A stretch of 64,000 nucleotides of DNA, taken from NCBI RefSeq assembly GCF_024502345.1, contig NZ_JALDNN010000001.1. The stretch is one strand, 5' to 3'. This document shows, in pieces, positions 6,880 to 7,766 of this stretch (position 1 is the first letter of the stretch; each line of letters starts with the position of its first letter). Below the pieces are notes generated by a model. The model saw only the letters and a list, made by a program, of their open reading frames with translations. It did not search any database and was not told the DNA's origin. The stretch is from Escherichia coli (GTDB lineage: Bacteria; Pseudomonadota; Gammaproteobacteria; Enterobacterales; Enterobacteriaceae). The translations under genes were made by a program, and so were the position numbers.

Positions 6880-7030
6880 AAGGGGCAGACTCCTGACCAT
6901 TACTGAAGTCGCCCGCCACGAGCAATTTCAGGGGGAGCTCCGTTTTCTTGCTCGCACCACCGGTATGCAAATCAAGTTTTAAATTAATACGCGCTTTAGG
7001 GATTTCGGACTGAAAGGAAGAATTAGACAT
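6880..7030 (-). pseudogene. T6SS sheath small subunit (TssB/VipA-like) 5' fragment, about 48 codons
   Basis: Minus-strand translation MSNSSFQSEIPKARINLKLDLHTGGASKKTELPLKLLVAGDFSNGQ matches the conserved TssB N-terminal signature (RINI…ELPL…GDF); similarity is lost about 6890. Not in ORF track (short). Confidence 0.5.
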
Positions 7031-7766
7031 GGCTGTCCCTGTTCTATGGAGTGATAGAAACGGTCAATGCCAGTGAAAAATAAATAAGAAAAAATTACCC
7101 AGCCAGAACAACTTTCCGGTTCGCGTCATCCGACGTAAATAAAAATCCCGGAACCAAAAAAAGCGGGCGCATTCCATCCACCAGCATGTCGACACTGTAT
7201 TTTCTGGGTATTTGTCTGAAATGAAAAATTTCGGATAAGGCCCAATGGCTGGAGTTTGGGAACGTTCCCTGCCAGATCGAAAATGAAAAAATGTAACAAA
7301 GATTTACATTCCTGGCTTTTAACAAAAAAAATATCATCTTTCTGATTTATAAAAATTTTACACCATAACCCTTCAGGCCCCGCGGGATAAGGATGTACAG
7401 AAAATGATCAATTTGGCTTAGGGTGTATATTTGTACAAAATATCACCAGTCACGTGAAATATCTGATTTTGTACTTTTATCAGAAATTGAGAAGCTGGAC
7501 GTGACTGAGCATGTGAAAAACTGGCGACAGTTTCAGGTTTCCATCATTTCTTATTATTCACGTAAACCGGGCTTATTTATTTTTTTTCAGATTAAAGGAA
7601 TTGCAACGCCCGGACTTTACGCATATCTCATACCTGTACCAGCGATATGAATATCTCAGCCGCCGGTGCATTAGCGCGACCAGGAACAACACCCGTTCGG
7701 TTTACAGAAAGACAGACGTGGACAGTGATGAGCTTTGCTGCGGGTTGAGAACGGTTGTTTTACTGC

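Follow-up and report, generated by a model that had tools for sequence, protein, structure and literature searches.

A frameshifted tssB fragment joined to an IS256-family remnant

We analyzed a 64,000-nucleotide (nt) stretch of an Escherichia coli genome (contig NZ_JALDNN010000001.1 of assembly GCF_024502345.1), referred to here as the window, which carries an orphan piece of tssB, the gene that encodes the small sheath subunit in a type VI secretion system (T6SS). The fragment, tssB′, is a pseudogene on the minus strand (6729 to 7030) that holds codons 1 to 101 of a gene of about 165 codons. On its 5′ side, an AT-rich noncoding region of 736 bp (7031 to 7766, minus strand) separates it from a DUF2913 gene, and at its truncated end it runs into the remnant of an insertion sequence (IS) of the IS256 family (6246 to 6728, plus strand). 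As argued below, this feature is very probably a nonfunctional, inherited deletion scar that was imported on a mobile island or plasmid module.

Two minus-strand open reading frames (ORFs) in different frames make up tssB′. The first (6854 to 7030; 58 amino acids [aa], MSNSSFQSEIPKARINLKLDLHTGGASKKTELPLKLLVAGDFSNGQESAP…) matches the Pfam family T6SS_VipA (PF05591) at profile positions 2 to 50 (E = 2e-11, 44.3 bits), and the second (6714 to 6881) matches it at positions 47 to 99 (E = 2e-13, 50.8 bits); both exceed the gathering score of the family, 24 bits. DNA alignment with four intact or longer tssB genes revealed that 1 nt is missing from a C-run/TCT motif (about 6881 to 6886), a loss that shifts the frame after codon ~48 and leaves the 58-aa ORF followed by an out-of-frame continuation to 6729. 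Apart from this deletion, the homology to tssB is unbroken over 302 nt, from 7030 down to 6729. When intact Enterobacter TssB was searched against the window with TBLASTN, residues 1 to 50 were found at 96% identity and residues 48 to 102 at 89%. The reconstructed 101 residues align with residues 5 to 99 of VipA (PDB 3J9G; E = 3e-18), far beyond chance, and the nearest proteins are TssB of Klebsiella michiganensis and Enterobacter, at 94 to 96% identity. The Pfam profile, the VipA structure, and annotated TssB proteins place the fragment in the TssB/VipA family.

The profile is covered only at positions 2 to 99 of 155, and the locus holds no full-length, uninterrupted TssB ORF of ~165 aa: homology ends at nt +302 of 501, and the C-terminal third is absent. 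TBLASTN detected neither tssC nor another T6SS core gene next to the fragment, and TssC, TssK, TssL, TagL, Hcp, ClpV, and VgrG from an intact relative gave no match elsewhere in the 64-kb window. As a frameshifted stub without its C-terminal third, and with neither tssC nor another core gene close by, tssB′ is probably unable to build a sheath. Compared with all other tssB alleles, codons ~67 to 76 (6800 to 6830) carry about nine substitutions in a stretch of 18 nt (NNFDSVLS to NNCDSVIS), a cluster that could be a small conversion tract or could reflect relaxed constraint in a pseudogene.

The IS256-family remnant retains the left end of the element and the first ~137 codons of its transposase, ~483 bp. 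It aligns over 6246 to 6728 with an intact IS256-family element of E. coli SLK172 at a mean column identity of 84% and is ~90% identical to E. coli copies over 6600 to 6728. The encoded product is of the Mutator/IS256 type, matching Pfam Transposase_mut (PF00872) at profile positions 44 to 137 of 379 (E = 1.4e-21). A complete element would have both ends and an undamaged transposase, whereas here the right part is absent, and the transposase, which starts with an ATG at 6318, is stopped at codon 7 by a CAG-to-TAG change (6336 to 6338).

At the junction (6728/6729, k-mer CACCGACGCTGGTAGTCCTTCATGC), internal IS256-family sequence meets internal tssB sequence. Homology to the IS stops at 6728 and homology to tssB at 6729, with a microhomology of at most 1 nt (A6728), and neither side is an IS terminus. 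The two gene fragments converge head-on, both lack their 3′ parts, and homology is lost at internal positions on both sides, which argues that the join is a deletion between two internal points rather than the end of an IS insertion.

An AT-rich region shared with other tssB loci

The region between DUF2913 and tssB′ has a G+C content of 41% (32 to 39% within 7200 to 7600), compared to 48.8% for the window. It is homologous, at 79 to 96% identity, to the DNA that lies upstream of tssB, whether intact or truncated, in a number of other genomes, namely, a metagenome contig (96%), Yersinia alsatica and Mixta tenebrionis (89 to 90%), Cedecea sp. (83%), K. michiganensis (82% over window positions 8411 to 6730), an Enterobacter kobei plasmid (81%), and the metagenome-assembled genome (MAG) of an uncultured member of the Enterobacteriaceae (79% over 2.2 kb). 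In the MAG the region precedes an intact tssB-tssC-tssK-tssL, which argues that the 736 bp are the native 5′ region of a T6SS cluster.

A nested palindrome, GTACAAAAT-N24-ATTTTGTAC with TCACGTGA at its center, lies at 7433 to 7474 and is conserved across genera, in six or seven relatives. It may be a binding site for a regulator or other protein in the former T6SS promoter region. Further searches of the AT-rich region gave negative results. There was no match in Rfam, and RNAalifold returned a covariation term of +1.31 with 3 of 124 pairs compensated, that is, no covariation support for a structured RNA. A promoter and terminator scan yielded fewer sites than shuffled sequences did, with none resembling a promoter on the tssB strand, and the best match to a Fur box, sought by analogy with sci-1 of enteroaggregative E. 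coli (EAEC), had 7 mismatches, no better than shuffles. No ORF is conserved in the region, since candidates switch frame between relatives through 1- to 2-nt indels. The sole recurring candidate resembles an upstream ORF, a 21-codon stretch (7064 to 7129, minus strand; MTRTGKLFW[L/Q]GNFFLFI[F/S]HWH) that ends ~30 nt before the tssB start; it is present in five of seven relatives, with nonsynonymous differences and variable starts.

The original prediction, made from the sequence alone, had described this locus as the N-terminal portion of a TssB/VipA gene with an AT-rich upstream region, followed by an IS256 remnant, with no other T6SS gene in view. These components were all recovered: the 58-aa translation has a significant TssB match in both the Pfam and the TBLASTN searches, the transposase match lies within 6246 to 6728, the upstream region is AT rich relative to the window, and the search with seven T6SS proteins was negative. 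The extent of the fragment needs correction. It had been read as 48 codons followed by unrelated sequence, but what follows codon 48 is still tssB in another frame, for a total of 101 codons; the start assigned to the feature, 6880, cuts the fragment in half, and no strand had been given for what proves to be a minus-strand gene extending from 7030 to 6729.

Intact relatives and repeated loss of the T6SS cluster

The island backbone begins with the DUF2913 gene (7767 to 8372, minus strand; Pfam DUF2913, E = 5e-20), which stands ahead of tssB in intact and decayed relatives alike. Three Enterobacter chromosomes carry AlpA, two Zn-ribbon genes, YagK, DUF2913, a 210-aa ORF, and then tssB-tssC-tssK-tssL-ompA-hcp-clpV-vgrG, and the backbone genes of the window are the same genes in the same order. 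A T6SS of this Klebsiella/Enterobacter type is found in Enterobacter sp. JBIWA003 (CP074170/CP074177, pJBIWA003_1). Over the 101 residues that tssB′ retains, its TssB is 95% identical, and its chromosomal copies have the upstream backbone of the window (AlpA, two Zn-ribbon genes, YagK, DUF2913). Unlike the stub in the window, the JBIWA003 clusters are complete. The one on pJBIWA003_1 spans ~28 kb with ~21 genes, which past vgrG include DUF4123, Tli1, a DUF2235 phospholipase, PAAR, tssM, tssA, tssF, tssG, tssJ, tssE, and vasL. In the Enterobacter islands, the AT-rich block is replaced by a different, GC-richer tssB-proximal region with the 210-aa ORF. This ORF, which is Myb-like and lies between DUF2913 and tssB, was considered as a possible source of remnants in the window and rejected, as TBLASTN found none.

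Other relatives share the order of backbone, AT-rich region, and tssB with the window and have likewise lost the cluster; their breakpoints are their own, and the elements at their junctions differ from that of the window. Counted in nt from the tssB ATG, with the intact MAG copy as the reference, tssB homology ends at −5 in Cedecea sp. (followed by vgrG), at +13 on the E. kobei plasmid (resuming inside tssC, followed by an Rhs gene), at +302 in the window (followed by the IS256-family remnant), at +346 in Y. alsatica, and at +378 in K. michiganensis (P0012, 169 aa; followed by IS21). These different endpoints show a cluster that has apparently been truncated independently in at least five lineages, that is, lost repeatedly. 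Most of the truncated relatives were retrieved with a probe taken from the AT-rich region, and the retention of that region is therefore partly an ascertainment effect.

Native tssB genes of E. coli are mostly 60 to 80% identical to tssB′ at the DNA level (nine records reach 80 to 90%), and none of these records matched the upstream region. As described in PMC6730261, which cites Dudley et al. 2006, the pheU pathogenicity island of EAEC 042/17-2 carries the sci-1 and sci-2 T6SS clusters, a parallel to this locus in that T6SS clusters are cargo of tRNA-Phe-type islands in E. coli. The tssB of strain 042 belongs to a different T6SS lineage (~70% DNA identity, no shared upstream region) and, unlike tssB′, is intact and functional.

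Distribution of the scar

An index of the assembly collection lists the exact 58-aa frameshift product in 4068 blocks, and the product occurs on at least 1000 contigs; one of its database names is “ImpB [Klebsiella quasipneumoniae].” At most of the loci displayed for it, the same 150-aa Transposase_mut ORF follows. The DUF2913 neighbor is present in loci L002-L005, L008-L010, L013-L019, and L025, and the exact DUF2913 protein is itself found on at least 1000 contigs, assigned to Klebsiella, Kluyvera, and “n=9 Enterobacteriaceae.” Three of the loci (L013, L015, and L018) are 99.9 to 99.99% identical to window positions 6132 to 17030, and two more (L014 and L019) are at least 99.9% identical over the spans they share with it. 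Beyond the left end of the IS256-family remnant, a stretch of 114 bp (6132 to 6245) is common to the other scar-bearing elements; to the left of it the window diverges into IS3-family sequence, and the homology of L013, L015, L016, L017, L018, and L019 to the window ends at 6132.

Identity is complete on plasmids as well. A segment of 1038 bp comprising tssB′ and its upstream region is 100% identical on 16 plasmids of 213 to 477 kb from four genera (Klebsiella, Raoultella, Citrobacter, and Escherichia), hosted by K. pneumoniae, K. quasipneumoniae, K. variicola, K. aerogenes, Raoultella ornithinolytica, Citrobacter youngae, and E. coli. A single genome among the 5426 complete ones of E. coli has the scar: strain EH09-18-41 (NZ_CP063503.1), which is 99.95% identical to window positions 6114 to 18533. 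Its copy sits in an island beside yghD/gsp (gspL-H), not dcuS.

The scar has already been annotated and is an ordinary, known relic. The NCBI annotation pipeline (PGAP) labels the copy in NZ_CP063503 (IQS19_RS19725) “tssB, frameshifted; incomplete; missing C-terminus,” next to a “transposase” pseudogene, and the authors of the C. youngae plasmid pCY-CTXM-15 (OV141394.1), an IncFIB/IncHI1B megaplasmid, annotated “tssB” and “IS256.” Our literature search found no paper that discusses this tssB′/IS256 scar. In sequence, frameshift, junction, and DUF2913 neighbor, the EH09-18-41 and pCY-CTXM-15 copies are identical to the window. Past the IS remnant, both carry cargo for efflux of the resistance-nodulation-division (RND) type, whereas the window has an IS3-family composite there and its island complex abuts dcuS.

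Origin of the scar

An identical junction and frameshift on so many contigs and in other genera, the rarity of the scar in E. coli and its different locus there, and the divergence of native E. coli tssB point to a single ancestral deletion and an imported scar. The deletion would have arisen once, in an ancestral mobile element that most likely lay outside E. coli. It predates the dissemination of the module, and the genome of the window would have acquired the scar by horizontal transfer.

We propose the following course of events. The ancestor would have had a ~28-kb Klebsiella/Enterobacter-type T6SS cluster directly after the CP4-57-like backbone, with its own AT-rich 5′ region, an arrangement seen in relatives. 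An IS256-family element would have come to lie downstream in the opposite orientation, and a single deletion would then have joined IS nt ~483 to tssB codon 101, with loss of the remaining part of tssB, every other T6SS gene, and the 3′ two-thirds of the IS. The 1-nt deletion that frameshifted the stub after codon ~48 and the stop codon gained by the transposase stub, both visible in the sequence, would have been later changes. The scarred module has spread nearly unchanged on IncHI1B/IncFIB megaplasmids and chromosomal islands among Klebsiella, Raoultella, Citrobacter, and Enterobacter/Kluyvera and, rarely, into E. coli. In the lineage of the window, it sits in a mosaic island complex next to dcuS, and an IS3-family element has replaced the far-side cargo. 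The stub may persist because it adjoins backbone genes and costs nothing.

Some points weigh against this account. The order of IS insertion, deletion, and frameshift is our reconstruction. We found no element with both an intact T6SS and the distal flank, and neither the size of the deletion nor its far endpoint can be reconstructed. An exact scan with the junction 25-mer gave 0 matches in 100,044 species-representative genomes and so pointed to no species of origin, although an exact-protein search found thousands of copies. Finally, we judge tssB′ to be nonfunctional from its sequence; because its start codon and conserved 5′ region are intact, it could still be transcribed or yield a 58-aa peptide.

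The original prediction had called the locus the scar of a deleted T6SS cluster. This holds for its origin, given the intact clusters behind the same DUF2913/YagK backbone, but not for the place, given the identical scar on at least 1000 contigs and in other genera. Comparison with related T6SS loci likewise gave one of the two deletion endpoints: the tssB side lies at +302, with −5, +13, +346, and +378 in relatives, but past the IS remnant of scar-bearing relatives we found no T6SS 3′ remnant, only short, GC-rich ORFs before the RND efflux operon. A deletion in situ, by which an E. coli/Shigella-like chromosome lost a full T6SS at this very site through IS256-mediated deletion, would account for a genuine tssB 5′ end and native upstream region joined to IS debris, and E. 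coli tRNA-Phe islands with T6SS clusters are known, such as the EAEC pheU island (PMC6730261). Yet the same junction and frameshift recur on at least 1000 contigs as well as on plasmids from other genera, they occur in just one further E. coli genome among the complete ones, at a different locus, and E. coli tssB, including that of 042, is ~70% identical and comes without the upstream region. We consider this explanation very unlikely and already largely refuted. An orphan T6SS fragment, then, need not mean that the lineage once had the system; here the scar was in all probability imported ready-made.

Could what is left of the locus have been kept for a function? The 58-aa TssB N-terminal peptide might interfere when a T6SS, resident or incoming, assembles its sheath, or it might act as a small regulator; its start codon is intact, as are the ribosome-binding region and the conserved 5′ region, and the identical ORF is very widespread. 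That spread, however, comes with ~100% DNA identity across the whole module, which indicates recent dissemination rather than purifying selection, and other lineages truncate tssB at other codons or delete it entirely. The tail behind the frameshift is unrelated sequence, and the fragment stops at VipA residue ~99 of 168. The C-terminal part of VipA includes a helix needed for TssC binding, and tssB′ lacks this part. A function for the peptide is extremely unlikely. Selection on the AT-rich DNA, with tssB′ hitchhiking beside it, is unlikely too. In that case ~560 to 736 bp would form a functional island element, such as a regulatory or silencing platform, a noncoding RNA, or a binding site. 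Consistent with this, alignment columns are on average 86% identical across Klebsiella, Yersinia, Mixta, Cedecea, the Enterobacter plasmid, and the MAG, all five independent deletion endpoints fall on the tssB side (for two, no more than 13 nt from the ATG), and the nested palindrome at 7433 to 7474 is conserved. On the other hand, a probe from this very region served to find these relatives, and the region is about as well conserved as the coding DNA next to it, as a horizontally moving block should be. The region lacks covariation support, an Rfam match, a conserved ORF, a tssB-strand promoter above shuffles, and a Fur box beyond chance, and Enterobacter islands have a different region with the 210-aa ORF in its place. 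We give a slight chance to the broader proposal that the AT-rich block, with its palindrome, is a selected cis-element or noncoding transcript that has outlived the T6SS, or that a 58-aa stub expressed from it modulates T6SS activity. If true, a cis-element kept by selection would explain why at least five deletions stop at or just inside tssB.

With the imported deletion scar as the preferred reading, the locus offers a small, clean example of how a single family of mobile elements has lost its T6SS cargo recurrently, at five distinct breakpoints. Its junction could serve as a k-mer marker for tracing the module across Enterobacteriaceae.

The surrounding island

The rest of the shared backbone (8449 to 18533) travels with the scar and includes YagK/YfjJ, two Zn-ribbon genes, AlpA, a second YagK/Gp2-like gene, a RepB-like gene, a WYL regulator, YfjT, and others. 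A second CP4-like backbone lies at 38217 to 49597, so that two CP4-57-like backbones (7767 to 18533 and 38217 to 49597), each with YagK/YfjJ-type genes, stand in tandem; at the end of the second are DUF932, a CbeA/CbtA toxin-antitoxin pair, and DUF4942. The assignment to CP4-57-like islands is based on AlpA, YagK/YfjJ, Zn-ribbon, DUF2913, YfjT, DUF932, antirestriction, RadC, CbeA/CbtA, and DUF4942 genes. There is no tRNA gene in the window and no integrase among the ORFs examined; the tRNA-proximal end of the island may lie outside the window or may have been deleted (an IS1-bounded deletion at 49862 to 50629).

Between the two backbones, a defense-type module of five genes on the minus strand (18676 to 29115) encodes a ResIII/SWI2-SNF2 helicase (912 aa), an N6/N4 DNA methylase (568 aa), AIPR (621 aa), Abi_2 (313 aa), and an SNF2/Helicase_C protein (991 aa). 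It is 94 to 98% identical to islands in some avian pathogenic (APEC) and other E. coli strains.

On the far side of the scar, the IS3-family composite (1425 to 6131) is interrupted by an IS30 (transposase at 4674 to 5825) and a group II intron (Rfam RF00029 Intron_gpII at 1910 to 1996; reverse transcriptase/maturase ORF at 2000 to 3523). This composite is found elsewhere at ~97 to 99% identity in several E. coli chromosomes and at ~96% on plasmids. In the closest relative, LR607340.1 (L014), a cyclic-oligonucleotide-based antiphage signaling system (CBASS) pair, a CD-NTase and a Cap15-like effector, stands between the IS3-family element and a flank with MFS and AAA_13 genes (12113 to 14292 of that locus). 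The window lacks these 2.2 kb, and its IS3 end lies directly against position 1424, an arrangement that suggests loss of the defense system through an IS-adjacent deletion. In most other carriers (E. coli EH09-18-41 [L001], 1 to 18800; L013 and L022, 11600 to 25000), the cargo past the scar includes an RND efflux operon (MFP, permease, and OEP genes), an HMA copper chaperone, MipA, a two-component system, and a second RND pair. EH09-18-41 has, after its RND cargo, a crcB-gpmA-eno-USP-DHHA2 block that resembles a fluoride resistance operon. In the window, the RND/metal cargo and the crcB block are replaced by the IS3 composite.

At the other end, an IS1 (49862 to 50629) abuts the E. coli core, which begins at 50628, 77 bp upstream of dcuS. 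Absent between island and dcuS are cadA, dtpC, lysU, ghoST, yjdJ, and yjdI, the usual E. coli content between pheU and dcuS, an interval that we take, from the K-12 gene order, to include cadC/cadB as well. This gene loss next to dcuS resembles the cad-region “black hole” deletions of Shigella and enteroinvasive E. coli.
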